Made by a program: the position numbers and the translations under genes. From the NCBI GenBank assembly GCA_964461915.1, contig CAYWVD010000001.1:90211-154210 (forward strand): a stretch of DNA of 64,000 nucleotides. Reading direction: 5' to 3'. A model generated the notes under the pieces. The model ran no database searches, was not told where the DNA came from, and was given only the letters and a program-made list of their open reading frames with translations. Shown here piece after piece: positions 9,882 to 31,815 of the stretch. Origin of the DNA: an uncultured Candidatus Saccharibacteria bacterium (lineage in GTDB: Bacteria; Patescibacteriota; Dojkabacteria; B142; OLB20). Position 1 is the stretch's first letter; each line of letters begins with the position of its first letter.

Positions 9882-9890
9882 ATTATATCA
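9882..9890 (-). promoter_or_regulatory. Extended -10 element TGATATAAT upstream of tRNA-Lys
   Basis: Reverse complement of plus 9882-9890 reads tgaTATAAT, about 48 nt upstream of the mature tRNA 5' end. Confidence 0.3.
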
Positions 9891-9928
9891 GATTCCCAGG
9901 GATTTTAAAGGACGGCTTATAGCTCCTT

Positions 9929-11580: not shown

Positions 11581-11643
11581 TATTATACTACATGAATTTT
11601 AACAAAATAAGGTATAATTCATACCTCAAAATTATATTTAGCA

Positions 11644-14988: not shown

Positions 14989-14989
14989 T

Positions 14990-15547
14990 TTAAATTGGCT
15001 TATCTTTTAATTTTAATAAATATCCTATAAAGGTCGAAACTATATGGAGCAAAAAGTAAAAGATGAAAATATAAATAATAAATAATAAATTGCTAGAAAG
15101 ATAAGGTAATAAAAAAATACAACCGCCGATAATGTAGTCTATTTGATCGAATGGGAACCAAGGTTCGCCGGGTTTAATATTTGTCCTTCGTTTGAAAAAA
15201 CTTTTAATCGCATCCCCAAGCAATGCTCCTGATCCTGCAAGGATACCGAAAATAATTGGATTGATATCGTTGAAATTAATTGAAATATGGCTTTGCAACC
15301 AGGGTGATCCTAGATATGCGGATTGTTGAATTATTACAGTTAAAATGGCAATTATTACCCCGGATATTAAACCTCGAAATGTTTTGTGATCGCCAAAGAT
15401 CCTAATACCCTTATAGGATTTGTAGAAATCCAAGGGATAATTGATTTTATTTATGATAGGAATCTTATTTACAAAGACAGGAGTACCATTAGCTAAGCCA
15501 GCAGGTAAAAAGATCCAAATCGCAGTAAAAATATCAATCCAATTCAT
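14990..15547 (-). CDS. CDP-archaeol-synthase-like (CarS/DUF46) CTP transferase membrane protein
   Basis: 185 aa, about 5 TM; 'GDHKTFRG' and 'GDAIKSFFKRR' match the CarS signature G-D-x-x-x-S-F-x-K-R-R. Confidence 0.5.
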   Translation of the reverse strand: MNWIDIFTAIWIFLPAGLANGTPVFVNKIPIINKINYPLDFYKSYKGIRIFGDHKTFRGLISGVIIAILTVIIQQSAYLGSPWLQSHISINFNDINPIIFGILAGSGALLGDAIKSFFKRRTNIKPGEPWFPFDQIDYIIGGCIFLLPYLSSNLLFIIYIFIFYFLLHIVSTFIGYLLKLKDKPI

Positions 15548-16496: not shown

Positions 16497-17152
16497 TTCT
16501 TATTAATTACTTTTTTAATTTTATTAAATTTGGGAGCAAAATATTCACGAAATTTTGATCTTTTTACTACAAACTCAGCAGACTTGATTAATTCAATTAA
16601 ATTGTTCTTGGTGGGCTCCTCATTTATCAAGTTAAAAGTCCGACCTAAGCCACTCATGCTGTGTGCATCGGATCCAACCCCGAATGGGATTCCTGTTCGT
16701 TTTGCGAATTTCATTGCAGAGGAATTTGAAATACCAACAATGGCTCTTGCATTAAACCCCTCAATTAAATCAATTGATTTGAAAATTTTGAAAAGATTTT
16801 CTTCACCAATTCCATGTCTCCTCGTTGAGAACGGATGTGGTACAAAGCAAAGCCCCCCTTGCTTTTTAATTAGGCTGACTGTCTCCTCAAGTGTTAAACC
16901 TTTTTTAATTTTTTCTTTTAAAAATAATCCGATAATTTCCCCATCTTTAGTTAAAATTTCCTCACCAACAATAATCTTTTTGCCGAATTTTGAATTCATT
17001 TTTAAAGCAAATTCAATTTCGTTGTGATCTGTAATGGCTATGTAGTTAAGTGTATTGGATGATAGTGTCCTCTCGATCTGTTCCTCACTAATTCCACCAT
17101 CGTGTGATAGAATTGAATGAACATGAAGATCTAATTTTAAAATTTTTTTCAT
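16493..17152 (-). CDS. PHP-domain metal-dependent phosphoesterase
   Basis: 'DLHVHSILSHDG' and later His/Asp motifs (ITDHN, HPF, GSDAH) typical of the PHP fold. Confidence 0.75.
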   Translation of the reverse strand: MKKILKLDLHVHSILSHDGGISEEQIERTLSSNTLNYIAITDHNEIEFALKMNSKFGKKIIVGEEILTKDGEIIGLFLKEKIKKGLTLEETVSLIKKQGGLCFVPHPFSTRRHGIGEENLFKIFKSIDLIEGFNARAIVGISNSSAMKFAKRTGIPFGVGSDAHSMSGLGRTFNLINEEPTKNNLIELIKSAEFVVKRSKFREYFAPKFNKIKKVINKK

Positions 17153-17155
17153 AAA

Positions 17156-17740
17156 ATGATAAGCGCCTACAAATCAAAATTTAATCCAATTATATTATTT
17201 TTTGCAAAACCTCTGAAGAATGTTAATCCATCAATTTTAACATTTTTAGGGTTAATACCACCATTATTATTTTACTATTTTATGAGCCGTGGTGAATTTG
17301 TCTGGGCTTTAATTAGTATGGTTGGAATGTTCTTTGATACATTAGATGGGGCAGTTGCCAGACTTACTAATCGCGTTTCGAAATTCGGAGGCCTACTAGA
17401 TTCCGTAATAGATCGTGTAGCCGACACACTATTCATTCTGGGATTTTATTTTCTATTTTCGATACCATTAGAACTCATCTTGGTTACAATATTTCAATCT
17501 CTCTTAATTAGCTATATTAGAGCTCGTGCAGAAGTTGATCTTGCAGGGAAGAAATTAAATGTTGGTATTATTGAAAGACCCGAAAGACTTTTAATAATTG
17601 TTATTGCTTTATTATTAGAAATTCTTTTTCCATTAAAATCGATTGCTTTTTGGATCTTCGTAATCTTAAACCTATTGTCGTTTGTCACGATAATTCAGAG
17701 GCTGGTATTTGCACAGAGATTATTTGTCGAAAAGGAATAA
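17156..17740 (+). CDS. CDP-alcohol phosphatidyltransferase family protein
   Basis: Canonical 'DTLDGAVARLTNRVSKFGGLLDSVIDRVAD' (D-G-x2-A-R...G-x3-D-x3-D). Confidence 0.8.
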   Translation: MISAYKSKFNPIILFFAKPLKNVNPSILTFLGLIPPLLFYYFMSRGEFVWALISMVGMFFDTLDGAVARLTNRVSKFGGLLDSVIDRVADTLFILGFYFLFSIPLELILVTIFQSLLISYIRARAEVDLAGKKLNVGIIERPERLLIIVIALLLEILFPLKSIAFWIFVILNLLSFVTIIQRLVFAQRLFVEKE

Positions 17741-17766: not shown

Positions 17767-17840
17767 TGCCTGATGGTGTAATGGTAGCACAGTTGGCTGT
17801 TAACCATCTAGTCGTGGTTCGAATCCACGTCGGGCAGCCA
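17767..17840 (+). tRNA. tRNA-Asn (anticodon GTT), CCA encoded
   Basis: Hand-folded: acceptor TGCCTGA/TCGGGCA, T-arm CGTGGTTCGAATCCACG, anticodon loop CTGTTAA; one mismatch in the anticodon stem. Confidence 0.7.
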
Positions 17841-17850: not shown

Positions 17851-17890
17851 AATCCCGATTTAAAATTTATTTTAAGTCGGGATTTTTTGT
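17851..17890 (+). terminator. Hairpin (8-bp stem AATCCCGA/TCGGGATT, 18-nt loop) followed by TTTTTT, after tRNA-Asn
   Basis: Inverted repeat plus T-tract; the loop is unusually long. Confidence 0.3.
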
Positions 17891-17947: not shown

Positions 17948-19174
17948 ATGCAAGAAACAACTCAAATTAATGAAATCCCTGAAGTCTCTGATCAAAAGCC
18001 TATCGAGGCAAAACCTAAAAAACTAATGGACAAAAAAGCAATCTACCTAGCAACTGGAGCATTGGTATTTGTTTGTCTTACCATTATTTTAGCTATATTT
18101 TTATTGCCCAAATTAATAAATTGGGAAAAAGATGCTGATGTAGATACTAATCCCTCAATTTCTCCCACTGCTTCAGTTCCTCAGGAGATAACAGTCTCTC
18201 CAACTTTTGATGAAAATCCTTATGAAACCGATGGAAATCCAATAAATGTTTATAAGTATATAGGGAATCAAATTAGTCCTTCGGATTTAGTTAAATATGA
18301 GGGCGGCCCAGTTGATTGTCAGCCTCTTTCATTCGATCCATCAAAAGACAAATATACATTAGAGAATGTAGAAGGGACTCCTTCAAAACTATATAAAATC
18401 GAAGGTTTTGATGATGGAATGATGATGATTAATGGATGGTTATCTGAGGGGTCTGAAAAAATTAATATAGATAATACATATTCAGTCAATTTTTACCAAT
18501 TTGGATGTGCCAGTTCTACAAGCTATACTCTTGATATTTTGAAGAATAAGACTAGGCAAAGATATTTTACACAAGTCGAAAATTTTGAATTTTCTGAAGA
18601 TGGTAAATTTGCCTATATTATTTTTAATTCATTAAATGATAGGAAAATAAACCGTGTGATATATGATGTGGTAAATAATACGATCAAAGATATCCCAACA
18701 TTACCATGTAACTCTTTCGATGCTTTTTGGCAACAGGACAGACTTTTAACTTATCATAAGAATTTCGATTCAAGTGAATACACAACTGACCTATGTATTT
18801 GGGATAAATCAGCGAACCTTATTGCTAGATCAAATCTAACCACTTATTGGTCATCTGCATCAAGAGATATTTTAAGTGAAAAGATTGGATTATTACCAGA
18901 AAATAAGAATATTCTATATTTCTACACCTCATCATCTTCAGACTACAACAATAAGTGTACGCTTTACACTGTTGATTTGGAAAATACTCCAAGCAAAGTT
19001 AAATCCGCACTCATTTTAGGAAAAGGTGAGTTTAAATGTGTAGAGCCGGAAGTTCAGTTTGATTTTATCGGAATGAAATCTGCAATCGGGACATTCAGCT
19101 TTAGATATAACAAAGCTGGATCTGATTCCGATACAAAATCGTGGTCAGAATGGAATGTTGTGACTACAAAATAG
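17948..19174 (+). CDS. Hypothetical bitopic membrane or secreted protein (N-terminal TM, about 350-aa ectodomain)
   Basis: Single N-terminal hydrophobic helix 'AIYLATGALVFVCLTIILAIFLL'; Ser/Thr/Asn-rich ectodomain; no family recognised. Confidence 0.4.
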   Translation: MQETTQINEIPEVSDQKPIEAKPKKLMDKKAIYLATGALVFVCLTIILAIFLLPKLINWEKDADVDTNPSISPTASVPQEITVSPTFDENPYETDGNPINVYKYIGNQISPSDLVKYEGGPVDCQPLSFDPSKDKYTLENVEGTPSKLYKIEGFDDGMMMINGWLSEGSEKINIDNTYSVNFYQFGCASSTSYTLDILKNKTRQRYFTQVENFEFSEDGKFAYIIFNSLNDRKINRVIYDVVNNTIKDIPTLPCNSFDAFWQQDRLLTYHKNFDSSEYTTDLCIWDKSANLIARSNLTTYWSSASRDILSEKIGLLPENKNILYFYTSSSSDYNNKCTLYTVDLENTPSKVKSALILGKGEFKCVEPEVQFDFIGMKSAIGTFSFRYNKAGSDSDTKSWSEWNVVTTK

Positions 19175-19240: not shown

Positions 19241-20980
19241 GTGAATACTTTTGTTAAATTCTATAAATTTGTTTGGAGATATAAGGGAACTTTTCTCTGG
19301 GCAACCTTTTTATTGATAATTTCTCAAATTATTTATAATTTTGGAAATTATTATGTTCAATATTTAGTAGATGCGGCTAATACACCACATACGGCTCCTT
19401 ATGACTTTATTAATATTATTGCTGCATTTATTGCAATAATGTTATTTAGTATGGTTTTGAGTACTATAGCATGGACTGTTTCAGACAATAATTCTTTTAA
19501 GAGCGGCAGGGACTTACGAATAAAAGTACTATCCCAATTACATGATTTAGATTTTGCTTACCATGCCAACAAAAAAAGTGGATCGCTAATTTCATTGATA
19601 CGGCGCGGTGACGGTGCCTTTTTTAGTTTTTACCATGAACTTAATAAAGAAATTCTTCTAATTATTGTCGATTTCGTCTTTATTATCATTGCATTTGCAT
19701 CCATTGACTTTCGATTTGTAGCAATAATCTTAGTCTCAGTTGTTTTCATGTTAATAAGTACAGTCTTTTTATTAAGAGAAAATATTAAATCAAGAGCAAA
19801 ATTTAACAAAACGGAAGACGATATTTCAGGCATAATCGCTGATAATTTAATCAATTTTGAAACTGTTAAATTTTTTGCTAAAGAAAAATTTGAAAGACAT
19901 AGATTAGTTAAAAAGTTCCAAGAATGGCTGGCAAATCTTTGGGGATATTCATTTTCATTTAGACTTATTGGAATAGTAATAAGTTTAATTGAGGTATTTT
20001 CAATGGCCTTAATATTCTACGTGTGTGTGAATCTATTTCAATTCGGCGATTTATCTAATGGAGCTTTTGTTTTAGTAATTACATTTACTATTCGATTTTA
20101 TCCTCAGATGTTCAATTTGATCTTTAGATTAAGAGAAATTGCTAAAAATCACACTGACCTTGAAAAGTATATGAATATACTCGAAATCGAACCTCAGATA
20201 AAAGATAATAAAGGTGCTATTGAACTCAATAAAGCAAAAGGTGCAATTGAATTTAAGAATGTGTTCTTTGGATATAAGCCAGAAAACAGAGTTTTAGATG
20301 GGTTTAATCTTTCAATTAAACCTCATGAATCAGTTGCCTTTGTTGGAACATCCGGGGCTGGGAAAACTACTCTAGTGAAATTGTTATTAAGATTCTATGA
20401 TGTAGATGCCGGAGAAATTTTAATTGATGGTAAAAATATTAAAGATGTTAAAAAAAGCTCTCTAAGAGCTAATATTGGCTTAGTCCCACAAGAACCCGTC
20501 CTTTTTAACGATACAATTAAATACAATATTTCCTACCCTAAAAATAATATATCCATGGATGAGATCGAGAAGGCCGCGAGACACGCTAACCTTAACGATT
20601 TTATTAATAAACTTCCTGAAAAATATGAGACCGAAGTTGGAGAAAGAGGGATAAAATTATCCGGCGGTCAAAAACAAAGGTTGGCAATAGCTAGAGCTTT
20701 CTTGGCTGATACATCCGTTGTAGTCTTTGACGAGGCGACAAGTCAATTGGATTCATTCTCCGAAAAGCTCATACAAGATGCATTCTGGCGAGTCGCAAAA
20801 AACAAAACCTCAATAATAATTGCTCATAGGCTATCAACTGTGATGCGAGCAGATAGAATAATTGTCCTTCAAAACGGCAAAATTGTTGAAGAAGGTACAC
20901 ATAAACAACTTTCTTCTCGAAAGAACGGAGTTTATAAGGGCCTCTGGGAAATGCAAAGAGGCGGTATGCTTGTTGAGTAA
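19241..20980 (+). CDS. ABC transporter, fused permease/ATPase type-1 exporter (MsbA/MdlB-like)
   Basis: 6-TM N-terminal domain; Walker A 'GTSGAGKTT', signature 'LSGGQKQRLAIARAF', Walker B 'VVVFDEATS'. Confidence 0.9.
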   Translation: MNTFVKFYKFVWRYKGTFLWATFLLIISQIIYNFGNYYVQYLVDAANTPHTAPYDFINIIAAFIAIMLFSMVLSTIAWTVSDNNSFKSGRDLRIKVLSQLHDLDFAYHANKKSGSLISLIRRGDGAFFSFYHELNKEILLIIVDFVFIIIAFASIDFRFVAIILVSVVFMLISTVFLLRENIKSRAKFNKTEDDISGIIADNLINFETVKFFAKEKFERHRLVKKFQEWLANLWGYSFSFRLIGIVISLIEVFSMALIFYVCVNLFQFGDLSNGAFVLVITFTIRFYPQMFNLIFRLREIAKNHTDLEKYMNILEIEPQIKDNKGAIELNKAKGAIEFKNVFFGYKPENRVLDGFNLSIKPHESVAFVGTSGAGKTTLVKLLLRFYDVDAGEILIDGKNIKDVKKSSLRANIGLVPQEPVLFNDTIKYNISYPKNNISMDEIEKAARHANLNDFINKLPEKYETEVGERGIKLSGGQKQRLAIARAFLADTSVVVFDEATSQLDSFSEKLIQDAFWRVAKNKTSIIIAHRLSTVMRADRIIVLQNGKIVEEGTHKQLSSRKNGVYKGLWEMQRGGMLVE

Positions 20981-21079: not shown

Positions 21080-21193
21080 ATGAATTCTCAAATACTTACA
21101 TTTCTAAATTATTTTCTAATTAGCGTTCTAATTTTATCCATATTCTCTTTTTTAAATGGGTTTATTAATTATTTAAAAAACAAGAAAAATTAA
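21080..21193 (+). CDS. 37-aa single-TM micro-protein (MNSQILTFLNYFLISVLILSIFSFLNGFINYLKNKKN), just upstream of the pilin gene
   Basis: ATG-initiated small ORF below the ORF-track cutoff; hydrophobic core; its position suggests a T4SS accessory peptide. Confidence 0.3.
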   Translation: MNSQILTFLNYFLISVLILSIFSFLNGFINYLKNKKN

Positions 21194-21212
21194 CATTTTA
21201 TTTATAATTTTT

Positions 21213-21548
21213 ATGAAGACAAAAATATTTAAGGCTGCCACTAAGTTCATTGCAATCCCTTTGGCTGGTGCTTTATCAAGTACCTACATAAGAGCAGAAG
21301 GTTCAGTAATTTCATTCCCAAGTCTTGATAATTTGCTTTGGAGCATAGTTGCCACTATTCAATATTACACCCTGCCGGTGATGGCAATAGGGCTCGTTTT
21401 ATTAGGCATAAAATTAGTTTCTAGCGGTGATGATACTGCAACTAAAGATATGGTGAAATCTTGGATGGTAAAGATCTTAATTGGTGGAATTTTAATTTTT
21501 GGTGCAAGTATGATTGCCAACTTAATTAAAACAGCAGTAGGAGGATAA
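21213..21548 (+). CDS. VirB2/TrbC-like T4SS pilin (signal peptide plus two hydrophobic helices)
   Basis: 111 aa; signal-like N-terminus, then 'LPVMAIGLVLLGIKLV' and 'ILIGGILIFGASMIANLI' helices; first gene of the VirB-like cluster. Confidence 0.5.
   Translation: MKTKIFKAATKFIAIPLAGALSSTYIRAEGSVISFPSLDNLLWSIVATIQYYTLPVMAIGLVLLGIKLVSSGDDTATKDMVKSWMVKILIGGILIFGASMIANLIKTAVGG
21540..21545 (+). promoter_or_regulatory. Shine-Dalgarno GGAGGA for the VirB6-like gene (inside the pilin gene 3' end)
   Basis: GGAGGA 3-4 nt before the ATG at 21549. Confidence 0.35.
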
Positions 21549-23420
21549 ATGAAAAAATATTTCAAAAAATTTAATTTGAAAGCTTTAAGTGATTCTTATC
21601 GAGTAGCTCGAAATAACTTTCTTGTGTTAAAAGCTAAGAAGAGGCGTTTAGCAATAATTATCTTATCAACATGGGCTTTCCTAGTAATAACAATTAGTAT
21701 TATTACTATCCTGAATATTTTCAATATTTGGGAAAAAAATACTTATCAACCGGTTGAGCAAAAGGAGCAAGTTGAACAACAAAATTTTTACCCAAATACT
21801 GGTTCGGAAAATGTTTATATCACTCAAATTAAAAACAGTTTGCAATCTACATCAACTCTATTTGATAATTTTATTGCTTTTACTCCTGATCCAACTGGAA
21901 AGTCAAAGTGCTTTAAGCAAGAAAGTTTGATTTGCGAATTAAATTTTTTACCTCAAGCGACCTTAACATTCCCTGCTACAAATGTTTCAATGCCTTCTAC
22001 CCAAAAAATTATTAATACTTTACTAGCCTTAGTTGTCCCTTTTGGCTTCATTTTAATATCAATACAAGGATTTAATTTCCTAGTTGCTGAAAATACAGCA
22101 GAATTAAAAAGTTTTTTATTCCGAGTTTTAGGCGGAATAGTTTTATTAATCATTACTCCATACATCTTGAGTATCTCAATTATGCTCGTTAACCAGTTAT
22201 CAAGCTTTTTATTAGGAAATTCGACTTTAACGGAATTTATTTCAAAATTTGTTGAAAGCCTTGAAAGTGAAACCCCAAACAATCTCTTTCAAGAATTATT
22301 AAAGAACTTTTTTGAACTTGGAAATAATGGTGGGATTAATCCCCTCAGTTATTTATATGCGATACCAGTAATAATCCCATTAAGCCTAATTTTTCTATTG
22401 TTATTATATATAAGTTTTCAATTCATCCTTAGATTTTTAAATTTATATTTTTTATCAGCAGTTTACCCATTTACTATAGTTTTTTCTTTTCATCCAAAAA
22501 CAACACAGATAGTGTCTAACTACTGGAAGCAATGGACTACATTTATAATTCAACAGCCGGTATTTGTTCTAGGATTCGTAATCATTAAAGAGGTTTTATT
22601 CAGCCTTTTCGATAATGGATTATCATTAGAAGTGATGATAATTTTTATAGGCCTCTTACTCTTTTTAGGAACAATTTCAGTTTTTGCATCAAGATTATGG
22701 GGCGATATATATACAGCGGTTGCCAATAATGTTTCTGCTGGTATAGCTGCCAACATGGTGAAAACTTCATTCATCGATAAACCTCTTGAATACGCAGGTA
22801 GATTAGCAAGTATTAAATCGGAGCAAAGTCTTGCTGGAATTTCGAAAAAATATCTTGATACAGAGTCTGCTCCAGCAGAGGAATCTAAGTCTAATACTAA
22901 CAAATCCCCTGAGAAAACTCCTTATAAAAGCCAGCTTGCAAAAGAACTTCAAGGCGGTGGGTTTTCTGTAAATGAATTACCAAATGGCAAGATAAGTACC
23001 AGCGGAAATTTTTATATGGATTCTAAAGATAATTCTGCAATTCAAAAATTATATATAAGCCCCCAAGATGCCCTAAAAGATGGAGTTAAGCCACAAAATA
23101 TTGGGAGCCAAAGAATATCAAATTTAACTCTACAAGACACTTCAAATACCAAAAAAATTGGAGCATATAATGGTGGGATTAAAGACTATGCAGGGGAAAA
23201 TTCAGGTCATGCCAAAAATATTAGCCTAAACTATAAAAGTACAGATAACAAAGTCAAAGAGAATATGACCATGGCTCGTAGCTACAATTTTATTAAAGGT
23301 GTCCAAGCTATCGGAGTTAAAAACGATGTGCAAAATGGTGATAAGTCAATATTGGGAGATAACATTATAAAAATTCATACTTATAAAGAGGTTTTAAAAA
23401 ATAAAAATGCAGGCTATTAG
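21549..23420 (+). CDS. VirB6/TrbL-like polytopic inner-membrane channel protein with a hydrophilic C-terminal tail
   Basis: 623 aa, at least 6 TM segments in the central region, about 220-aa Ser/Asn/Lys-rich C-terminal tail; positioned between pilin and VirB3/VirB4 as in Gram-positive T4SS. Confidence 0.5.
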   Translation: MKKYFKKFNLKALSDSYRVARNNFLVLKAKKRRLAIIILSTWAFLVITISIITILNIFNIWEKNTYQPVEQKEQVEQQNFYPNTGSENVYITQIKNSLQSTSTLFDNFIAFTPDPTGKSKCFKQESLICELNFLPQATLTFPATNVSMPSTQKIINTLLALVVPFGFILISIQGFNFLVAENTAELKSFLFRVLGGIVLLIITPYILSISIMLVNQLSSFLLGNSTLTEFISKFVESLESETPNNLFQELLKNFFELGNNGGINPLSYLYAIPVIIPLSLIFLLLLYISFQFILRFLNLYFLSAVYPFTIVFSFHPKTTQIVSNYWKQWTTFIIQQPVFVLGFVIIKEVLFSLFDNGLSLEVMIIFIGLLLFLGTISVFASRLWGDIYTAVANNVSAGIAANMVKTSFIDKPLEYAGRLASIKSEQSLAGISKKYLDTESAPAEESKSNTNKSPEKTPYKSQLAKELQGGGFSVNELPNGKISTSGNFYMDSKDNSAIQKLYISPQDALKDGVKPQNIGSQRISNLTLQDTSNTKKIGAYNGGIKDYAGENSGHAKNISLNYKSTDNKVKENMTMARSYNFIKGVQAIGVKNDVQNGDKSILGDNIIKIHTYKEVLKNKNAGY

Positions 23421-23688
23421 AATTTATAAAATAAAAATTCGAGAAAATATATTAAGGCAAATAATCTTTACCAATAAAAATATATTTATCGGCCTATTGG
23501 TATTAAATATCGCATTGATTTGGCTGATAGCGGGGACTCTTCCGATGGGCTTCAGGCTTTTGATTTCACTACTTTGTTCTGGTGTATCCCTATTAATATT
23601 CACAATGAAAATTGATGGACAATCTTTAATTAAAATATTTATTAGGATGGCAAAATTTACTTTTATAAATAAGAAATATCGCGGATGA
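23407..23688 (+). CDS. VirB3-like small 2-TM protein
   Basis: 93 aa, two hydrophobic helices, immediately upstream of VirB4. Confidence 0.4.
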   Translation: MQAIRIYKIKIRENILRQIIFTNKNIFIGLLVLNIALIWLIAGTLPMGFRLLISLLCSGVSLLIFTMKIDGQSLIKIFIRMAKFTFINKKYRG

Positions 23689-24200
23689 ATTACCCCTTAA
23701 GTATAAAAAACAATTTAATAATTTATTTCAAATCCATAATTGCAGTTTACGAACTCGATCCAGTCGATCTATTCATACTTCCTGAGGGGGATCAAGAGAT
23801 TTTTATTAAAGATATGGGCAACACACTAAATTCAATTAAGGATTCAGAAATCCAAATCATAATGAGAACGCGCAATGCACTCCCAGAAGATCTTAATACA
23901 CATCTAAATACCTTCAATAAATTCGAAGAAGACATGACAATAAATAAAACCTTAATTCAAAAGTATTCTGAAGATCTTACTGAACTTATTTCCAAGAATA
24001 TCATCCCAATAAAGGAATATTTTTTACTTATCAAACAAAACTGCGAGGTTAGTAAATCCGAGCAATTGACTAAAGGAATTAATTCCCTTGAACGAAAAGT
24101 CTCTCGAATTTTTAATAATATAAATTCTACTGGCATTGGCTTAAAGCAAATAACAGGAAAAGATTTAGATAAATTTTTAATTACCTTCACTAGATCATGA
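23685..24200 (+). CDS. VirB4 N-terminal-domain-like protein, read as the split 5' part of VirB4
   Basis: 171-aa ORF overlapping the ATPase ORF by ATGA; combined length of about 760 aa matches full-length VirB4/TraE/TcpF. Confidence 0.4.
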   Translation: MNYPLSIKNNLIIYFKSIIAVYELDPVDLFILPEGDQEIFIKDMGNTLNSIKDSEIQIIMRTRNALPEDLNTHLNTFNKFEEDMTINKTLIQKYSEDLTELISKNIIPIKEYFLLIKQNCEVSKSEQLTKGINSLERKVSRIFNNINSTGIGLKQITGKDLDKFLITFTRS

Positions 24201-25969
24201 TCACCTCAATCACCAAAGGGTTTCAATGGTATATCAGTGTTTGCGAATCGTTAGGAAAAGATTTTGCAAAGTTATTATTCTTTTTCGAAAAGAAAAAGAG
24301 CCAGGATGAATTTAGCCTAATTAAAAATCATCTTCAAAAAAAAGATGAAACACATTTAAAAAAGTTTTCATTCGATTCAATAATTGAAAAAGATAGATCC
24401 CTTTTGATCGGAGATAAACATCATCGAATTTTTTATTTAGCAGACTTGCCTCCATTTGTCTTCTACTCAACGATATTTAAATTAATCAATTTACCTATTC
24501 CGCTAACTTTTTCTTATCACATTAAAGATACCAACAAGGCATTAATGATTAGGGCTTGTAGAGCAAGGCTTAGCGTTCTAGAAAGTTCTAAAAATTCTGA
24601 TTTGAAGAAAAATAAAAATCCGAGTCCCGAGCTTGTCAAAGAAATTGAAGAATTAACTGTATATATTAACGATTTAGTTTACGATAAAGAAAAATCTTTC
24701 CTATTAAGCCTATATATAGAAATCCGAGCAGATACAAACAATCAACTCATAGAGTTTTCGAAAGTCCTGCAAGATGCCGGCTCAGACTTGGAATTTGTTT
24801 TTAACACTTATTCATTTGCTCAAAAAAAGGCCCTCGATTCAATAATGCCAATTTGTAACGATTCCGTTAAAGAAAGTCACCTTTTGCAAACTTCGGCCAT
24901 GGTCAATCTGCTTCCATTTTTAAGTAGGAATTTAAATGACCCCTCAGGAATATTCTTTGGTGTCGATCATTTTACCAATAGTTTAATTTTGTTAGACATT
25001 TTTAAAGCAAGGAATGCGAATATTAATATTTTCGGAACTTCGGGGTCGGGCAAATCCGTAACAGCAAAGTTATTAATGATGCGTTTTGTTTTGCGAGGTG
25101 TACAAAACTTAATTCTTGACCCCGAAGGTGAATATGTCGGTTTAACAAAAGCTTTAAAGGGGAAAGTATATCAGTTCGATTCAAATAATGGGATAGATCC
25201 ATTTCTGCTTTTACAGGCGTTAGATTGTGAAAAGGCTGATTTAGTTCAAATTATTAAACATTTTTTAAAGTTTTTCATTCAAGACAAGAATTATGATATG
25301 GCTTTACTAGATGAGCTTATAGTAAATTTTATTAAAAGCAAATCTATCCAAACATTTAATTCGTTTTTTATTTTCGTTCAAAAGAAGCTTGGAAAGTCTA
25401 ATGGCATAGTTGTTGACTTAAAACAGCTTATAACAGGGTCCTTAGCAGGCCTTTATACAAATAGTACAAATATTAACTTGTCAAACCAAATAATTTGTTT
25501 TGACTTATCTTTACTGAAAACTGATGAGCAAAAATTACCTTTAATGTACCTTCTTGGTAATGTTATTAATAAACTCTTAGACCTATCGGGAACAAGGAGA
25601 ATGGTTTTTATCGATGAGGCGCATAAATTCATCAAAGATAAAAATAATACTGATTTTTATGTGAACTTGGTTAAAACAGCAAGAAAAAGGAAAGCTGGTG
25701 TTGTAACAATCACACAAAATCCAGAAGATTTTAAAGAATCGGATAATTCAAAAACAATTATTACTCAAGCCGAAACGACAATTTTACTAAAACAAGCTGC
25801 CGCCTCAATTAATTTTATTAATCGCTTTGGGCTTTTTAAATTAAGTGATCGAGAATGCACAGATTTATCAGTATTTGGTGTGGGTGAAGCACTTTTCATT
25901 CGAGAAAAAGAACATATATATATTGATATTTTCCCATTCAAAAGTGAAAGGGAATTGGTTTTTACTTAG
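24197..25969 (+). CDS. VirB4-family T4SS ATPase (C-terminal ATPase portion)
   Basis: Walker A 'NIFGTSGSGKSVTAKLL', Walker B 'MVFIDEAHKF'; 590 aa. Confidence 0.85.
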   Translation: MITSITKGFQWYISVCESLGKDFAKLLFFFEKKKSQDEFSLIKNHLQKKDETHLKKFSFDSIIEKDRSLLIGDKHHRIFYLADLPPFVFYSTIFKLINLPIPLTFSYHIKDTNKALMIRACRARLSVLESSKNSDLKKNKNPSPELVKEIEELTVYINDLVYDKEKSFLLSLYIEIRADTNNQLIEFSKVLQDAGSDLEFVFNTYSFAQKKALDSIMPICNDSVKESHLLQTSAMVNLLPFLSRNLNDPSGIFFGVDHFTNSLILLDIFKARNANINIFGTSGSGKSVTAKLLMMRFVLRGVQNLILDPEGEYVGLTKALKGKVYQFDSNNGIDPFLLLQALDCEKADLVQIIKHFLKFFIQDKNYDMALLDELIVNFIKSKSIQTFNSFFIFVQKKLGKSNGIVVDLKQLITGSLAGLYTNSTNINLSNQIICFDLSLLKTDEQKLPLMYLLGNVINKLLDLSGTRRMVFIDEAHKFIKDKNNTDFYVNLVKTARKRKAGVVTITQNPEDFKESDNSKTIITQAETTILLKQAAASINFINRFGLFKLSDRECTDLSVFGVGEALFIREKEHIYIDIFPFKSERELVFT

Positions 25970-25982
25970 ACAATAAAATTTT

Positions 25983-26696
25983 ATGAAGGAAGAAGAACAA
26001 GCTGAATCAAATATTTTCAAAGTTACTGAGAATATTTTTTCAGGGATACTTGATATTGCATCTCTATTTACCAAAACTGGAAAAGCATTAAAACTTTTAA
26101 ATTCAAAAAACAATATTAATTATATACTTATCTTATTCTTTGTAATCTGTCTATGCGCAATATCCATTTTAATGTTCAGTCTTTCAATTAAATCAATATC
26201 TACAGATAATACTTATGGATACATGATTTATCATGATTTTGTTGATAGTGGGATTCCTCATTTATCTCCATTCGGTGGAGCTAAATATCAAATAACCACG
26301 GCTGATTTTCATGACTTAAATTATTATCAATATTATGGTAGGTGGCATCAAGGTATGGATTTAGTTCCAAATCAAAAATATTATCAAGAAGATTCAGGTT
26401 ATCTTGATTACAAAGATGTTTTAATTTATGCAACTTGTTCTGGAAATGCCAAGTCCCTTGTGGATTCGGCTGGTGCGAACTATATCTACCTTATTTGCGA
26501 TGGAGGGCTATATGCCTTGTTTTTTGTGCATAATAAATACAATTTAATTGAAAAAAACCATCAAGCTAAAGTAATTGCAGGACAGCCCATAGCAGTTATG
26601 GGTAATACTGGGAATTCTTTTGGTGCGCATGTCCATTATGCAATTAAAGATTTAAAAACTAATTCTTTTCTTGATCCAAAACTTTTTATGAATTAG
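25983..26696 (+). CDS. Membrane-anchored M23-family peptidoglycan endopeptidase (VirB1-like wall-opening function)
   Basis: N-terminal TM; 'HQGMD' (HxxxD) and 'GAHVHYAI' (HxH) zinc motifs. Confidence 0.8.
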   Translation: MKEEEQAESNIFKVTENIFSGILDIASLFTKTGKALKLLNSKNNINYILILFFVICLCAISILMFSLSIKSISTDNTYGYMIYHDFVDSGIPHLSPFGGAKYQITTADFHDLNYYQYYGRWHQGMDLVPNQKYYQEDSGYLDYKDVLIYATCSGNAKSLVDSAGANYIYLICDGGLYALFFVHNKYNLIEKNHQAKVIAGQPIAVMGNTGNSFGAHVHYAIKDLKTNSFLDPKLFMN

Positions 26697-28365
26697 CTTT
26701 TTTGTTATCCAAGCATGCATCAATAAACCCAAGAAAAATTGGATGTGGCGACGTAAAATGTGATTTTAATTCAGGATGATATTGTGTTCCCACAAAAAAT
26801 GGATGAAACTTTTTATCAAGTTCAATGGCTTCCACTAGATCCCCATTTGGACTTGTTCCAGAAATTATTAAGCCTAGCTTTTCAAGGGTATCTCTATATT
26901 CATTGTTGAATTCGTACCTGTGACGGTGCCTTTCATCGACAATTGGCATTTTTTGGAATAAATCGCTTTTGTTTTTATCATAAAGAGAAAAGAGTAGGGA
27001 GTTGTTTTTAAGTTTACATGGATAAGCTCCTAATCGAATCGTGCCACCATATTTTTTATCTAAAATATTTTGCTTTTGGCTTTCCATCATGTGAATCACT
27101 GGGAATTTTGTTTTGGGGTCAACTTCAGTTGAATTGGCGCCTTTTAGTTTAGCAACATTTCGAGCGTATTCGATTACTGCCATTTGCATCCCAAAACATA
27201 GGCCAAGATAGGGGATTTTATTAGTTCTTGCAATTTCGACTGCTTTGATTTTACCTTCAACACCTCGACTTCCCCAACCCTGTGGGACTATTAGTCCATC
27301 ATATTTTTTTAAAGATTCTTGAAGATTTTTATCATTTTCTAAATTATCAGAAACTATCCAATGTAGAATTGGCTTGCAGCCTCTTGCCCAAGCAGAATGA
27401 TTAACTGCTTCGATAACAGAGGCGTAGGAATCCTTTAAGCTAAAATTACCGCTTTGAAAATATTTAGCAATTACTCCGATATTAACTTCTTGCTTTGGAT
27501 TATCTAGGTTTTTAAGTAATTTACTCCATTTCTTTATCATCAGATTATTAGTCTGAGGCTTTTTCTTAATATGCAGGGCCTTTAGTATATTTTTACCGAT
27601 TCCCTGGTCATAATAATGCTTTGCCACTTTGTAGATATTGTCCATGTCAGGTGCAGAAAATACACTATTAGAATCAATCATACAATAGGCTGAAAGCTTG
27701 TTGGCTCTGATTTCATCAATGCCTTCTTCGGATCGAGCTAATAAGATTTCAGGGTTTATTCCGGCGCTATTGAGTTCTTTTACTGAAAGCTGAACCGGTT
27801 TGCTTTTCATTTCTCCGATATTTTTAGGAACAGGTAAATAGGATAAATGTACATGAATAACATCGTTAGGATATTTAATCTTCAGTATCCTATTAGCTTC
27901 TAAAAAAAGTTTGTTACCTATTTCGCCTACTGTGCCACCTATCTCGATGATTGTGACTTCGGCTTTTTTATCTTTTGCGAGTTTTTCGATCCAATCAACA
28001 ATTACTTGGGGGACATGGTAATCAATGTTTACCCATTTGCCTTCATAAGCTAAAGCGCGTTCATCTTTAATGACCTTATCAATTACAGCGCCACAAGTTA
28101 AAGAGTTTGGCCTCGTAAACTGTTCACCGGTGAATCTTTCATAAGTTCCAATGTCCATATCAGTTTCAAAGCCATCCTCAAGGACGAAAGTTTCGCCGTG
28201 CTCTAATGGATTCATTGTCCCAGCATCGACATTCAAATATGGATCCGCCTTCATCATTGTTATCTTAAACCCATAAGACTTCAAAATTACGGCAATTGAA
28301 GAAGAAGCAATACCTTTACCTAAACCCGAAATAACTCCACCTGAAATGAAGATAAATTTTTGCAT
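26686..28365 (-). CDS. pyrG: CTP synthase; start trimmed to the Met of MQKFIFISGG
   Basis: 'FIFISGGVISGLGKGIASSS' N-terminus, GATase domain 'GLCFGMQ' with catalytic Cys. Confidence 0.9.
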   Translation of the reverse strand: MQKFIFISGGVISGLGKGIASSSIAVILKSYGFKITMMKADPYLNVDAGTMNPLEHGETFVLEDGFETDMDIGTYERFTGEQFTRPNSLTCGAVIDKVIKDERALAYEGKWVNIDYHVPQVIVDWIEKLAKDKKAEVTIIEIGGTVGEIGNKLFLEANRILKIKYPNDVIHVHLSYLPVPKNIGEMKSKPVQLSVKELNSAGINPEILLARSEEGIDEIRANKLSAYCMIDSNSVFSAPDMDNIYKVAKHYYDQGIGKNILKALHIKKKPQTNNLMIKKWSKLLKNLDNPKQEVNIGVIAKYFQSGNFSLKDSYASVIEAVNHSAWARGCKPILHWIVSDNLENDKNLQESLKKYDGLIVPQGWGSRGVEGKIKAVEIARTNKIPYLGLCFGMQMAVIEYARNVAKLKGANSTEVDPKTKFPVIHMMESQKQNILDKKYGGTIRLGAYPCKLKNNSLLFSLYDKNKSDLFQKMPIVDERHRHRYEFNNEYRDTLEKLGLIISGTSPNGDLVEAIELDKKFHPFFVGTQYHPELKSHFTSPHPIFLGFIDACLDNKKANS

Positions 28366-28400
28366 AGTTTTTTTTGGAGAATTAAAGTTACTATACAACA

Positions 28401-28853
28401 CTAGGAAATTTTGGGCAAGGAGAATTTTTCCCAATCCTCGATTTCGCCTTCTATAACATCAAAAAGAGGGTTCGGATCAATTTGTTTTATTTTTTTTATT
28501 TGTTCAAATCTTTTTAGATCGCGAACAGTAAGTTTATGTAATAAATGCTGATATTCATATTCGATCTGTTTGTTTGTAACCTTAATTTTTAATTCTTCAA
28601 TACTTTCAATTATATTAATTTTTGTTTTATCAAATTTATACCCTCTATTTTGGGATTCATTGAAGATGAATAGTAAGTATTGATTAATTAGGAGAATCGG
28701 ACTATTTGAATCTTTAAATCTTTTTAATTGAGGATGGTTCTTGTAACCTTTGGTTTTTCCTTCAAGGACTTTTTTAGCTAATAAACTTTCGCGCCAAACA
28801 GCGACTAATCCTTTATTATCTAGATATTTTGGATGTATTGACCAGAGTCTCAT
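28401..28853 (-). CDS. Pyrimidine-dimer DNA glycosylase (T4 endonuclease V / Pyr_excise family)
   Basis: N-terminus 'MRLWSIHPKYLDNKGLVAVWRESLLAKKVL...GYKNHPQLKRF' matches the conserved start of that family. Confidence 0.7.
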   Translation of the reverse strand: MRLWSIHPKYLDNKGLVAVWRESLLAKKVLEGKTKGYKNHPQLKRFKDSNSPILLINQYLLFIFNESQNRGYKFDKTKINIIESIEELKIKVTNKQIEYEYQHLLHKLTVRDLKRFEQIKKIKQIDPNPLFDVIEGEIEDWEKFSLPKIS

Positions 28854-28895
28854 TTGGTGGATTAAAAAATGTTGGAATGCGGAAATTATAAAAAA

Positions 28896-28970
28896 TCGGA
28901 GCGGAGAGACTTGAACTCTCGACCTCGCGGTCCCAAACCGCGCGTTCTAAGCCAACTGAACTACGCTCCG
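28896..28970 (-). tRNA. tRNA-Pro (anticodon TGG), no encoded CCA
   Basis: Hand-folded: CGGAGCG acceptor, anticodon stem-loop CGCGG-TTTGGGA-CCGCG, T-arm GAGAGTTCAAGTCTCTC. Confidence 0.85.
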
Positions 28971-28990
28971 AAGTGTTTTAGAACACATGT

Positions 28991-28999
28991 ATTTTATCA
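28991..28999 (-). promoter_or_regulatory. Extended -10-like TGATAAAAT upstream of tRNA-Pro
   Basis: Reverse complement of 28991-28999 reads tgaTAAAAT, about 21 nt before the tRNA 5' end. Confidence 0.25.
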
Positions 29000-29017
29000 C
29001 AAATACGTATAGAAATT

Positions 29018-30361
29018 CTATTCTGAAATTTCTTCTCGATCATCAATAACTTTTTCCTCGAAATTTTTTGGAAGTTTTTGGATCTTTTTGTTTATTGTTT
29101 TTATTGAATCTTTACCAGTTAGGCTAATCGATTTAAAGAAAGCCTTGATCGTCCTAATAATCTTTTTGAATTTAATTGTGATAAACAAGAATACATTCAA
29201 AATCTTACTCACGAGTTTGAGAACAGATGTAACTATTTGTTCTTTGAATAAGATTATGTTGTTGTAAATTAATATCGAGCCCATTCTTACTCTAACTTTC
29301 AGTTGATAGAACATATATGTTAATGTTTTATCAAAATGAGATAGGCCAGCCCAAATATTATCTAAAAATCCTAAGAATCCTTCGTTAGTGGTAGACAAAC
29401 CCGATGAAAGTTTTTCTCCAGCACCTTCCCAGTATACTTGTCCGATCTTTATATAGAGGCCGGATTTATATAAGGCTACACCAAAGAATACAAATGCAAA
29501 TCCTAATATAATAACATCCACTTCGTCACTTATTAATGCAGTAGCTGGAATTGTCGATGTAGTAGGAGTAGTGCTTGTCACAACAACTGATCTTGTAGCT
29601 GTAGGAGTCATTGTCCTAGTTGCTGTAACGGTTGGGGTATTAGTATTTGTAGGAGTAGCAGTTACTCTGCCTGTAGAAGGAGAAACTGTTATTGTAAATG
29701 TTGGACTTACAGTTGGACTTGCTGAAGGGCTAGCCGATGGAGTCCCTATTGTGGCACCCGGTGTATTGGTGGGCGTTGCAGTAGGTGTATCTGTAGCAGC
29801 TAAGGGGACACAAATACTGCAAGAAAAAGGATATTCATTAACAGAACAAGTTGCAAAATAGCTCACAAGCCGCTCGTTACCAATACATGCGACAGCTTTG
29901 AAATTAGTAATAACTCCGGTTGCCATATCCCTATATTCTTGAGGAATATATGCTGAACAATCGCATTTAAAGTCTGAGCCATCTACCCATTCAATACCTG
30001 TATCTTTATTAGCTGTATAGTTACATCTTGCCATTTTCCCAATATCTTTCGTCCCAAATTTGATTAATTCAGTATTAAACTTACAAGAATTTGTATTTTC
30101 TTTATTTGAACAAGAATCACCTGAACTTTGAGGCGCTGAACAACAATTTGATAAAGATGGAGTCGAAGATGATGTTTCGCAAGCGCAATATCCTACTGCA
30201 TTTTCAAAACAACCTGGGGGGACTAGCGCACTTGAATCTTCAGGAGCAGTTGATGGGGTCTGACTAAGTTTTATCCCTATGAATATTGCTCCTCCAGTAA
30301 TTAAAAGAGTCAATACTACAAACATAACTAAAGCAACTTTTTTATATTTAGGGTAGTTCAT
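29018..30361 (-). CDS. Type-I surface protein, paralog A: N-terminal signal/anchor, Cys-rich ectodomain, Thr/Pro linker, 'IPATALISDEVD'-TM, and a roughly 150-aa tail
   Basis: Shared N-terminal helix 'GGAIFIGIKL' and C-terminal module 'PxTALISDEVD + TM + YKSGLYIKIGQVYW' with the three upstream paralogs; 22 Cys in the ectodomain. Confidence 0.6.
   Translation of the reverse strand: MNYPKYKKVALVMFVVLTLLITGGAIFIGIKLSQTPSTAPEDSSALVPPGCFENAVGYCACETSSSTPSLSNCCSAPQSSGDSCSNKENTNSCKFNTELIKFGTKDIGKMARCNYTANKDTGIEWVDGSDFKCDCSAYIPQEYRDMATGVITNFKAVACIGNERLVSYFATCSVNEYPFSCSICVPLAATDTPTATPTNTPGATIGTPSASPSASPTVSPTFTITVSPSTGRVTATPTNTNTPTVTATRTMTPTATRSVVVTSTTPTTSTIPATALISDEVDVIILGFAFVFFGVALYKSGLYIKIGQVYWEGAGEKLSSGLSTTNEGFLGFLDNIWAGLSHFDKTLTYMFYQLKVRVRMGSILIYNNIILFKEQIVTSVLKLVSKILNVFLFITIKFKKIIRTIKAFFKSISLTGKDSIKTINKKIQKLPKNFEEKVIDDREEISE
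29577..29800 (-). repeat. Imperfect tandem codon repeats encoding the Thr/Pro/Ser/Ala linker of paralog A
   Basis: Periodic gt(t/a)gg(a/t)g(t/g)... units; the antisense strand gives a spurious VGV ORF. Confidence 0.5.
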
Positions 30362-30363: not shown

Positions 30364-31815
30364 TTAATCCTTATTAACGACTTTTTGAGAATTAATTACT
30401 TCTTCTTCAAATGATTTTGCCTTACGGATCTTAATTGATTTTAAAGAGGCAGAAATTTTGAAGATTATTGTTTTACTAATTCTTTTAACAAAGATCAATG
30501 TATTCAATAAACCTAAGATAATTTGATTTTTAATTCCAGACAATTTATTAAATACAAATTTAAAGCTGTAAACAATATTAAGACCGATTTTTTTGAAACT
30601 CATGATTAGTGAAGTCTCAAATTCTTTTATAGAACTGAAAAGTGAATTCGATCCTTCTTTCAAATCCTCGGATACATTTAAAATGCCGGATGAAACATTC
30701 TTACCTCCGTTATTCCAATAAAGTTGGCCTATTGAAATATACAAGCCTGATTTGTAGATAAATCCGCCGGTAATAACTAACAATAAACCGAATACTATTA
30801 AATCAACTTCATTACTGATAAGAGCAGTAGGAGGAAGTATTGTCCCAGTAGGAGTATTTGTTACAGTCCTTGTAATAGTTCCGGTAGGAGTTCTTGTAAG
30901 AGTTCCTGTTGGAGTGTTTGTTGGTGTCCTTGTGGGAGTATTGGTTGGTGTGTTGGTAGGTGAATTTGTAATAGTTAATGTACCAGTAGGTGTATTTGTT
31001 GGAGTGTCAGTCGGTGTTGGGGTTATAGTAGTACCGGCGGGTACACAGGAGCAAGGATTTTCACCTGGTTCTAGTACTTCTCCGGGATCACAAGCAGTCT
31101 CTACCAATTGACACATTCCTTCGGACCCATCAGGATTAAGGTCATAATCAAAATCACATTCATAGTTGGGATTAATATTTTTACATTGGGCATCTTCGGT
31201 ACAAATTCCGGAGTTACAAGCAAGTGGTTCGGGTTCTTCTTTACAAATATCAAGGTTGCCAGTGTAGCCGGATAAGAAACATTCTGGAGCTACATCACCA
31301 TCAAATTCAACATCAATTTGTTGAAAATTACACCAGTCTCTTTGTAAACAAATTTGATAAACTGATTCTCCGGTATAAAATTCAGGATTAGCATCTCCAC
31401 TTGGATTTACCCATCTTGGAGTTATGTTTTGGATATGTGGGGCTGGATTATTTTTCCAACTTGATCGATCTGAACAATTCTGAGGAGTACCGCCGGGGCA
31501 GCTACATCCTTGACCATTAACGCTCCAATCGCCATCACAAAAGTGACTAGCAAACTGACTCGATGATCCATTTAAAAGATATCTATAATTACTTTTTACT
31601 TGAAGACAAACTGTCTCATCACGAAATACTAATTCACACTGTTTTGGGTCAGAGGGGCCGTATTGATAAATAATACCGTTATAAGTAGCAGCAGATACAT
31701 CGTCAGGTGTTACATCAGGTTGCTGTCCTAACTTTATACCAATATATACTGCTCCGCCTCCTATGATTATTGTAGCTAATATTAGGGCAAGTGCTATAAA
31801 TCTTTTTCTATTCAT
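30364..31815 (-). CDS. Type-I surface protein, paralog B (483 aa): large Cys-rich ectodomain, (TPTNTPT)n linker, 'LPPTALISNEVD'-TM, tail
   Basis: Same architecture and C-terminal module 'YKSGLYISIGQLYW'; about 30 Cys; 2-nt gap to paralog A. Confidence 0.6.
   Translation of the reverse strand: MNRKRFIALALILATIIIGGGAVYIGIKLGQQPDVTPDDVSAATYNGIIYQYGPSDPKQCELVFRDETVCLQVKSNYRYLLNGSSSQFASHFCDGDWSVNGQGCSCPGGTPQNCSDRSSWKNNPAPHIQNITPRWVNPSGDANPEFYTGESVYQICLQRDWCNFQQIDVEFDGDVAPECFLSGYTGNLDICKEEPEPLACNSGICTEDAQCKNINPNYECDFDYDLNPDGSEGMCQLVETACDPGEVLEPGENPCSCVPAGTTITPTPTDTPTNTPTGTLTITNSPTNTPTNTPTRTPTNTPTGTLTRTPTGTITRTVTNTPTGTILPPTALISNEVDLIVFGLLLVITGGFIYKSGLYISIGQLYWNNGGKNVSSGILNVSEDLKEGSNSLFSSIKEFETSLIMSFKKIGLNIVYSFKFVFNKLSGIKNQIILGLLNTLIFVKRISKTIIFKISASLKSIKIRKAKSFEEEVINSQKVVNKD
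30841..31035 (-). repeat. Tandem imperfect 18/21-nt repeats encoding TPTNTPT/TRTPT units
   Basis: Visible periodicity (ggagt(a/g)tt(t/g)gt(t/a)gg...). Confidence 0.55.

Follow-up and report, generated by a model that had tools for sequence, protein, structure and literature searches.

A cluster of genes resembling a type IV secretion system (T4SS) was found between positions 21080 and 26696 of a 64,000-nt stretch of contig CAYWVD010000001.1, referred to here as the window; all results on absent genes cover these 64 kb only. The genes are arranged on the plus strand in the order given in Table 1 and form a tight run with overlaps at three junctions (14, 4 and 4 nt), the remaining gaps being 0-19 nt. 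The gene for the 93-aa protein is involved in two of these overlaps, by 14 nt with the VirB6-like gene and by 4 nt with the TrsD-like gene, and the 4-nt overlap between the TrsD-like gene and virB4 has the form ATGA. The cluster genes were found to be intact in four independent assemblies. An earlier reading of this DNA, made from the letters alone (the sequence-only reading), had placed all the open reading frames (ORFs) that it listed correctly on the plus strand, but it had missed the TrsD-like ORF of 171 aa.

Table 1. Genes of the T4SS-like cluster, neighbouring genes and fusion ORFs of relatives (window positions unless a locus is named).
Feature	Position	Strand	Length	Basis or remark
Small ORF, single transmembrane segment	21080-21193	+	37 aa	Directly upstream of pilin gene
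VirB2/TrbC-like pilin	21213-21548	+	111 aa	Pfam
Extended VirB6/TrbL-like polytopic protein	21549-23420	+	623 aa	Domains of homologues, fold
VirB3/PrgI/TcpE-like protein, two transmembrane segments	23407-23688	+	93 aa	Topology, position, fusion in relatives
TrsD-like soluble protein	23685-24200	+	171 aa	NCBIfam profiles, fold
VirB4-family ATPase, short form	24197-25969	+	590 aa	NCBIfam, Pfam, Walker motifs
Membrane-anchored M23 metallopeptidase	25983-26696	+	237 aa	Pfam, motifs
Bitopic protein	17948-19174		408 aa	Upstream of T4SS cluster
MsbA-like ABC exporter	19241-20980			Upstream of T4SS cluster
VirB3-TrsD fusion ORFs	L003:8802-9611, L004:8664-9473, L005:8664-9473, L007:8595-9404, L008:8637-9446, L010:8647-9456

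The assignment of the 590-aa protein to the VirB4 ATPases, as predicted from its sequence, is firm. All of its top NCBIfam matches belong to the VirB4, TraC or TrbE families, with the CD1110 VirB4-like profile (216.7 bits) and the Mbov_0397 VirB4 profile (196 bits) followed by TraC (126 bits) and VirB4_CagE (95.5 bits), and the Pfam matches were to P-loop_TraG, AAA_10 and DUF87. Matches to HerA, FtsK and VirD4 in the same two databases were marginal (E 1e-2 to 1e-4). The Walker A motif (GTSGSGKS; residues 280-287, nt 25034-25057) and the Walker B motif (MVFIDE; residues 469-474, nt 25601-25618) are both intact, in agreement with the clear Walker motifs of the earlier reading. A total of 159 VirB4 homologues were detected. 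The loci used for comparison are the best 80 found by VirB4 in a species-representative genome collection, and synteny counts are given over 81 loci; in the VirB4 search of genome contigs the best match had 58% identity and the window species itself was absent from the matches. Comparison of virB4 with the gene of locus L082, the VirB4 of which is 85% identical, gave 253 synonymous and 87 non-synonymous codon differences.

The 171-aa ORF matched the VirB4_plasma profile NF045975 (the Mbov_0397 VirB4 profile) over positions 113-274 with E 1.8e-6 and the TrsD/TraD profile NF041427 with E 8.6e-4. As the 590-aa VirB4 matches NF045975 from position 276 on, the two ORFs jointly span this profile contiguously. 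An AlphaFold2 model of the 171-aa protein (pLDDT 72, pTM 0.67) was built on a shallow alignment, the word-based homologue search having given only three close proteins, and its top fold matches in the PDB were R388 TrwK/VirB4 chains (prob 0.90-1.00, E 0.015-0.05). The TrsD profile, when searched against PDB sequences, gave a chance coiled-coil match only. A TrsD-like ORF is located directly upstream of virB4 in 72 of the 81 loci. Independent assemblies of the window species, as well as relatives with VirB4 proteins about 85% and about 60% identical, show exactly the same two-ORF arrangement of TrsD and a short VirB4, which is not a sequencing artefact. The lengths of VirB4 in the relatives are bimodal (about 570-640 aa and about 700-780 aa), and the long proteins P0013 and P0019 (776-777 aa) match VirB4 profiles from near the N-terminus. 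TrsD may be an N-terminal module of VirB4 that was either detached or duplicated, the second option being raised because locus L002 encodes a 777-aa VirB4 (L002:9302-11635) yet keeps a separate TrsD-like gene upstream of it.

The 623-aa protein contains some six to seven hydrophobic segments, and its hydrophilic tail is about 200 aa long. Its layout consists of an N-terminal transmembrane (TM) segment, an extracytoplasmic stretch with a conserved TPDPTG motif, a helical TM bundle, a linker and an alpha/beta C-terminal domain (approximately residues 460-620, pLDDT 85-90), and the tail is conserved in the alignment of homologues. Three of thirteen homologues match Pfam TrbL (best E 4.8e-6); P0142 carries the TrbL/VirB6 domain PF04610 whereas P0132, P0138 and P0141 carry PF19590 (TrbL_3), and the homologues bearing either domain are 33-74% identical to the window protein. 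A profile built from the thirteen homologues retrieved nothing from PDB sequences. In a Foldseek search with the AlphaFold2 model (overall pLDDT 66) the top PDB match was 8rt9_F (prob 0.98, E 0.048, TM-target 0.47), followed by 8rtd_L and 7o3v_J/F, all of them entries of the R388 TrwJ/VirB5-TrwI/VirB6 stalk complex with prob 0.93-0.98. The domains of the homologues and the modelled fold thus lend indirect support to a VirB6-like protein with a long hydrophilic tail, which is also what the sequence-only reading had proposed. The protein fits the 'extended VirB6' type mentioned in a FEMS review of 2025 (PMC12857230). Support of this kind for a probable VirB6 identity of the long, divergent polytopic proteins in this lineage is mildly new, and it matters because the profile searches of Quinonero-Coronel et al. 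2025, Microb Genom (PMC12102498) found VirB6 to be scarce in Microgenomatia.

The 93-aa protein has two hydrophobic segments, and the two-TM gene that takes its place in L015 matches Pfam PrgI (E 6.5e-8). Single ORFs of 269 aa were observed in six relatives of the WWE3, Roizman and Levy type (Table 1). Residues 1-97 of these ORFs align with the 93-aa protein of the window (E 1e-6 to 1e-9) and residues 105-269 align with the 171-aa TrsD-like protein, the window having two overlapping ORFs instead. The existence of the fusion in relatives independently indicates joint action of the VirB3-like and TrsD-like proteins. In the fusions of the relatives VirB3 precedes the VirB4-N-like module on the N-terminal side, the same order of parts as in known VirB3-VirB4 fusions. 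The survey PMC12102498 found no VirB3-VirB4 fusions and does not mention a VirB3-TrsD fusion, and the fusion ORFs are a mildly new addition. Topology, position, a weak match to TcpE and the TrsD fusion of the relatives, that is mainly context, support the assignment of the 93-aa protein as VirB3-like, a role that had already been suggested for it.

The pilin gene product scores 30.9 bits for Pfam TrbC/VirB2, above the Pfam cut-off of 27.9, and matches T4SS_pilin with 23.5 bits. It has a signal-peptide-like N-terminus followed by hydrophobic helices at about residues 45-72 and 80-105, and in L002-L010 the gene immediately preceding that for the VirB6-like protein encodes a homologue (E 1e-27 to 1e-38). 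The pilin gene occurs in a single copy in the window and is not part of an array. The protein encoded downstream of virB4 likewise passes the Pfam cut-off for Peptidase_M23 (34.2 bits against 28.7) and has one TM segment (residues 48-66) and the motifs HQGMD (HxxxD) and HVH (HxH). In 26 of the 81 loci the gene after virB4 encodes an M23 peptidase, and in Saccharibacteria a CHAP hydrolase is found there. The protein is a predicted peptidoglycan hydrolase in the position equivalent to that of VirB1. Both of these results bear out the sequence-only reading, which had named a VirB2-like pilin and a membrane-anchored M23 hydrolase in the position of a VirB1 or CHAP wall hydrolase.

The small ORF upstream of the pilin gene encodes one hydrophobic segment. 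Its longest reading starts at 21062 (43 aa), and this reading was rejected in favour of the 37-aa one as L082 has lost the ATG at 21062 but keeps that at 21080. The L082 copy of the ORF also measures exactly 37 aa, with start and stop retained and no indels, while the intergenic DNA upstream of it has indels. The two copies differ by 12 synonymous and 9 non-synonymous codons and share 76% nucleotide identity, similar to virB4. The ORF was not found in L083, nor was it found in the other loci by profile search, and L002 has an unrelated-looking 51-aa ORF with one TM segment at the same position. The 37-aa ORF probably encodes no more than a small membrane protein restricted to the clade.

The order of the genes recurs among the relatives. 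All 80 loci come from metagenome-assembled genomes (MAGs), mostly labelled as Patescibacteria (WWE3, Roizman-, Levy-, Davies-, Woese-, Uhr- and Saccharibacteria), and some of them are evidently mislabelled bins. The recurring order consists of a pilin (85-139 aa, two to three TM segments), a polytopic protein (410-660+ aa), a two-TM protein (93-178 aa), a TrsD-like protein (170-260 aa), VirB4 (570-780 aa) and a hydrolase with one TM segment, and this order from pilin to hydrolase is kept across WWE3, Roizman-, Levy- and Daviesbacteria and Saccharibacteria MAGs. The cluster is therefore not a chance assembly of genes, as the order is repeated in dozens of independent genomes. Iterated profiles were found to be contaminated, since the VirB3 profile took in TrsD through the fusions and the pilin and VirB6 profiles cross-matched on TM helices; the comparisons of VirB3, pilin and VirB6 are therefore taken from single-sequence phmmer searches, and counts are used only for TrsD, VirB4 and M23. 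The window locus is closest to the WWE3 and Microgenomates-type loci, for which published profile searches found few VirB6 genes and few VirB3 genes linked to virB4.

Taken as a whole, the locus is very probably a chromosomal T4SS of the Patescibacteria clade and a derivative of the conjugation machinery of monoderm bacteria, the mating-pair-formation class MPF-FATA; membership of the clade is judged from the VirB4 profile matches and the nearest relatives rather than from a formal phylogeny. It represents an ordinary intact copy of the relaxase-less cluster that most Patescibacteria carry, and this cluster was already described in 2023-2025 and is not new. The clade was described by Quinonero-Coronel et al. 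in 2,407 assemblies. VirB4 was found in 2,417 of 3,035 Patescibacteria assemblies, and 2,425 of the proteins form one clade nested in MPF-FATA (PMC12102498). In the same survey TrsD was the most frequent partner of VirB4, genes for VirB3/PrgI, VirB6 and VirB2-like pilins were found nearby with pilins being common, and M23 or lysozyme-type hydrolases were located downstream of virB4. Relaxases were reported in just 103 of the 3,035 genomes, transfer of VirB4 between classes was rare, and VirD4-like genes were present in most Patescibacteria genomes, mostly far from virB4. Transposon sequencing showed that, in Southlakia epibionticum, T4SS genes and pilins are essential for epibiotic growth (Wang et al. 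2023, Cell; PMC10633639), with no recognisable coupling or relaxase proteins, and it was suggested that the system may export proteins. These two studies agree with the sequence-only reading in that similar reduced systems occur in ultra-small episymbiotic bacteria. The system has been presented as a newcomer to the T4SS superfamily, with the speculation that a pilus conduit serves exchange with, or uptake from, the host (PMC12857230). In a preprint of 2026 (10.64898/2026.06.21.733656), tubular structures, possibly T4SS pili, are described from the interface of a cultivated parasite with host RNA as its food.

The window locus shares with the Patescibacteria-clade systems, and with the S. epibionticum ML1 locus SEML1_0006-0019, a chromosomal location, the absence of a relaxase and a TrsD-like gene directly upstream of virB4. 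It also shares with the clade the adjacent VirB6-like and VirB2-like genes, probably a VirB3/PrgI-like gene beside them, a hydrolase gene directly downstream of virB4 and MPF-FATA VirB4s as nearest profiles. Differences were observed as well. The window has one pilin gene whereas S. epibionticum has a six-gene array, and its hydrolase is of the M23 type whereas Saccharibacteria loci have a CHAP or lysozyme-type hydrolase. A VirD4-like gene, located two genes past virB4 in the Saccharibacteria loci examined, is missing from the window locus. Compared with other systems of the clade its VirB6-like protein is long (623 aa), with a folded and conserved C-terminal domain, and escapes the standard VirB6 profiles.

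Among better known systems, the MPF-FATA plasmids pGO1 and pSK41 (TrsC, TrsD, TrsE, TrsG) also have a small TrsD just upstream of the VirB4 ATPase (TrsE), together with a VirB3-like protein (TrsC there), a wall hydrolase and a monoderm envelope without an outer-membrane core. Unlike the window locus, both plasmids encode a relaxase and a coupling protein and transfer DNA; moreover no VirB2-type pilin occurs in pGO1 and pSK41 and no VirB6 is recognisable in the pGO1 subclass (PMC12102498), whereas the window has both a pilin and a VirB6-like gene. The MPF-T systems R388 Trw and Agrobacterium VirB share with the window, where VirB3 is putative, the VirB3-VirB4-VirB6 module and the VirB2 pilin, and the models best match TrwI/VirB6 and TrwK/VirB4. 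Unlike these systems, the window locus has no VirB5, VirB7, VirB9, VirB10, VirB11 or VirD4; the N-terminal part of its VirB4 is a separate polypeptide, and an M23 hydrolase takes the place of the VirB1 lytic transglycosylase.

No relaxase, VirD4/TraG, VirB11 or integrase domain was found in the window, as the earlier reading had stated, in a Pfam scan of 40 further window ORFs together with precomputed domains for 13681-17740 and 26686-28853. A VirD4-like query of 858 aa from L022 likewise gave no window match by phmmer even at E 10. This query represents a gene (L022:12186-14762) with TrwB_AAD_bind, TraG-D_C and T4SS-DNA_transf domains, typical of VirD4 or a type IV coupling protein (T4CP), that is located two genes downstream of virB4 and after a CHAP hydrolase. 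Similar VirD4-like ORFs of about 860-895 aa occur in many Saccharibacteria loci, for example L019, L021, L023 and L024, and have no counterpart in the window. The other annotated window ORFs are housekeeping genes, namely those for RecF, trigger factor, Dus, thymidylate kinase, superoxide dismutase and a thioredoxin-reductase-like protein, as well as FolD, serine hydroxymethyltransferase, CTP synthase, a MacB-type ABC system, EF-G and EF-Tu. The remaining ORFs encode unannotated surface or hypothetical proteins.

The region is flanked by tRNA genes at 17767-17840 (tRNA-Asn) and 28895-28971 (tRNA-Pro), with housekeeping genes including that for CTP synthase between them, and has a GC content of 31-32% compared with 33-35% in the flanks. 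The same chromosomal context was observed in L001 and L082. A location within a mobile element is unsupported, with no integrase in the scanned window ORFs; direct repeats and att sites were not searched for. An integrative and conjugative element (ICE) or genomic island between tRNA-Asn and tRNA-Pro was considered as a candidate and rejected on account of the housekeeping genes inside it, the lack of an integrase and the conserved context.

Several observations weigh against the assignment to the Patescibacteria-clade T4SS. The profile searches supported VirB4 and VirB2/TrbC, but they gave no direct Pfam or NCBIfam match for the 623-aa protein, and the 93-aa protein passed no curated profile, its match to Pfam TcpE being weak and below the cut-off (E 0.011). 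The fold matches of the 623-aa and 171-aa proteins have marginal E values (0.015-0.05) and were obtained with models of moderate confidence (pLDDT 66 and 72). The locus has no recognised VirB8-like component, and promoter and terminator scans remained at chance level, so that the operon is not delimited by them. Finally, the missing coupling protein holds for the window only, and VirD4 may be located elsewhere in the genome as is the case in most Patescibacteria.

Gene identities, gene order, conservation and intact motifs were shown here, and the roles in assembly given below are inferred from the protein families and the literature. The VirB6-like protein and the two-TM VirB3-like protein would form a channel or platform in the membrane, and VirB4 would be docked at its cytoplasmic face by the VirB3-like and TrsD-like proteins, TrsD acting as a detached N-terminal module of VirB4. 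VirB4 would then drive assembly and pull the VirB2-like pilin out of the membrane to build a pilus or conduit. The M23 hydrolase, anchored in the membrane, may locally open the peptidoglycan of the cell itself and so let the apparatus cross the wall. The completed machine might move proteins, nucleic acids or other molecules at the site of contact between the host and the bacterium, in either direction. Transport at host contact is considered the most likely function rather than conjugation of a mobile element, because the locus has no relaxase or coupling protein and its surroundings are housekeeping genes. Export of proteins and import of macromolecules appear about equally plausible, and conjugation appears unlikely. 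The proposal of the sequence-only reading that the apparatus may serve DNA uptake or cell-cell interaction rather than conjugation agrees with current published opinion.

One possibility, held tentatively, is a dedicated importer comparable to the archaeal Ced system, which would bring DNA or RNA of the host, or nutrients, into a nucleotide-auxotrophic epibiont through a VirB2-type pilus. The Ced system (CedA/CedB) likewise involves a VirB4-related ATPase without a relaxase, so that import is conceivable, and the absence of a relaxase and T4CP from the locus is consistent with it. Reviews propose uptake through a pilus conduit, and the possible T4SS pili at the interface of the RNA-feeding parasite (10.64898/2026.06.21.733656) point in the same direction. 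The window VirB4 shows weaker similarity to CedD, and relatives also match CedB. However, CedB was not among the matches of the window VirB4, and the CedD score of 51 bits is far below the 217 bits obtained with conjugative VirB4. No CedA-like component or other Ced membrane protein was detected in Pfam and NCBIfam searches, and Ced works with a type IV pilus, unlike the VirB2-type pilin of the window. In S. epibionticum comEC is dispensable (PMC12857230), an observation that argues only against ComEC-dependent DNA uptake as the essential source of nucleotides.

A possibility of similar standing, and equally tentative, is an exporter of proteins or translocator of effectors that would be independent of a coupling protein, like Bordetella Ptl or Brucella VirB, and would deliver its substrates to or into the host bacterium. 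Protein-secreting T4SSs that lack a T4CP exist (PMC12102498, PMC12857230), and the suggestion of possible protein export by Wang et al. (PMC10633639) also favours this function. Against it, none of the genes of the cluster was recognised as a candidate effector gene, and the 408-aa bitopic protein encoded upstream is restricted to its lineage. A more specific and rather improbable version of import would regard a VirB4 that may be built from exchangeable pieces, with the TrsD-like protein free in the window and fused to VirB3 in WWE3, Roizman and Levy relatives, together with the extended VirB6, the single pilin and the lack of a coupling protein at the locus, as a stripped-down pilus conduit that imports host macromolecules such as RNA or nucleotides. 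If true, this would be a T4SS run in reverse as a feeding organelle.

It is very unlikely that the cluster is the mating-pair-formation module of an ICE or a decaying remnant of one, with relaxase, coupling protein and integrase located outside the window or lost. The nearest curated profiles are indeed those of conjugative VirB4s from ICEs of Firmicutes and Mollicutes (CD1110, Mbov_0397), tRNA genes occur on both sides of the region, and some Saccharibacteria loci have a VirD4-like gene two genes downstream of virB4. However, none of the integrase, relaxase or T4CP genes was found in 64 kb, CTP synthase and other housekeeping genes are located between the tRNAs, and the GC content differs little from that of the flanks. 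The genes are all intact, most substitutions in virB4 are synonymous and gene order is kept from class to class, and the rarity of relaxases and of transfer between classes in the published survey (PMC12102498) is also against an ICE. That the ATPase belongs to another family of the FtsK/HerA clade and the small membrane proteins are unrelated to a T4SS has a negligible probability, for although the VirB6-like and VirB3-like proteins of the window have no significant curated-profile matches and the VirB4 scores are below the NCBIfam equivalog cut-offs, the top matches of the ATPase are all to VirB4, TraC or TrbE, with HerA, FtsK and VirD4 marginal, the pilin scores above the TrbC cut-off, TrbL is matched by homologues of the 623-aa protein and the fold matches are to VirB6 and VirB4 of R388.

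The T4SS of Patescibacteria is an interesting open problem, to which the Patescibacteria-clade locus of the window adds one more intact example from a poorly sampled lineage. It is also of value for annotation, as the 'hypothetical' proteins of 623, 93 and 171 aa can be described as VirB6-like, VirB3-like and TrsD-like respectively.

The two genes upstream of the cluster had been put forward as possible members of the locus, but neither the ABC exporter nor the 408-aa protein is established as part of the T4SS. The 408-aa protein was found only in the window species and in L082 (58% identity). The ABC exporter stays beside the T4SS cluster in two other species of this clade, in L082 and in L083 (59.5% identity), despite differences in the other flanks, and in L083 a gene on the opposite strand separates it from the cluster; it is adjacent in only 4 of the 81 loci overall, its synteny being limited to this small clade. 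A strong terminator-like hairpin with a 15-bp stem and a T-run is located at 17851-17884 on the plus strand, right after tRNA-Asn and upstream of the gene for the 408-aa protein.

The cumulative GC skew over window positions 1-12000 has a minimum at about 6-10 kb and rises steadily after it, and recF is located at 1987-3081. The T4SS may perhaps lie within about 15 kb of the replication origin, as reported for many Patescibacteria, with no dnaA or dnaN seen in the window.

On the minus strand beyond tRNA-Pro, a tandem family of surface-protein genes was found at 29018-30361, 30364-31815 and 31886-32722, possibly also including 32715-33662 and 33683-35149. The first two members were scanned and gave no Pfam matches. 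The proteins share a plan consisting of an N-terminal TM segment, a Cys-rich domain, a Thr/Pro-rich linker, the motif 'P-x-T-A-L-(I/V)-S-(D/N)-E-V-D', a TM helix, the sequence 'YKSG(L)Y' and a further C-terminal region, and this could be a lineage-specific module for anchoring or sorting. In strain ERR3438382 of the same species (L001:14807-16395), three extra genes are located between tRNA-Pro and the first gene of this family (about 28971-29018 in the window). They encode a 266-aa protein with a CntK_N domain, a 118-aa acetyltransferase and a 67-aa ORF, and represent a small strain-variable insertion beside the tRNA.

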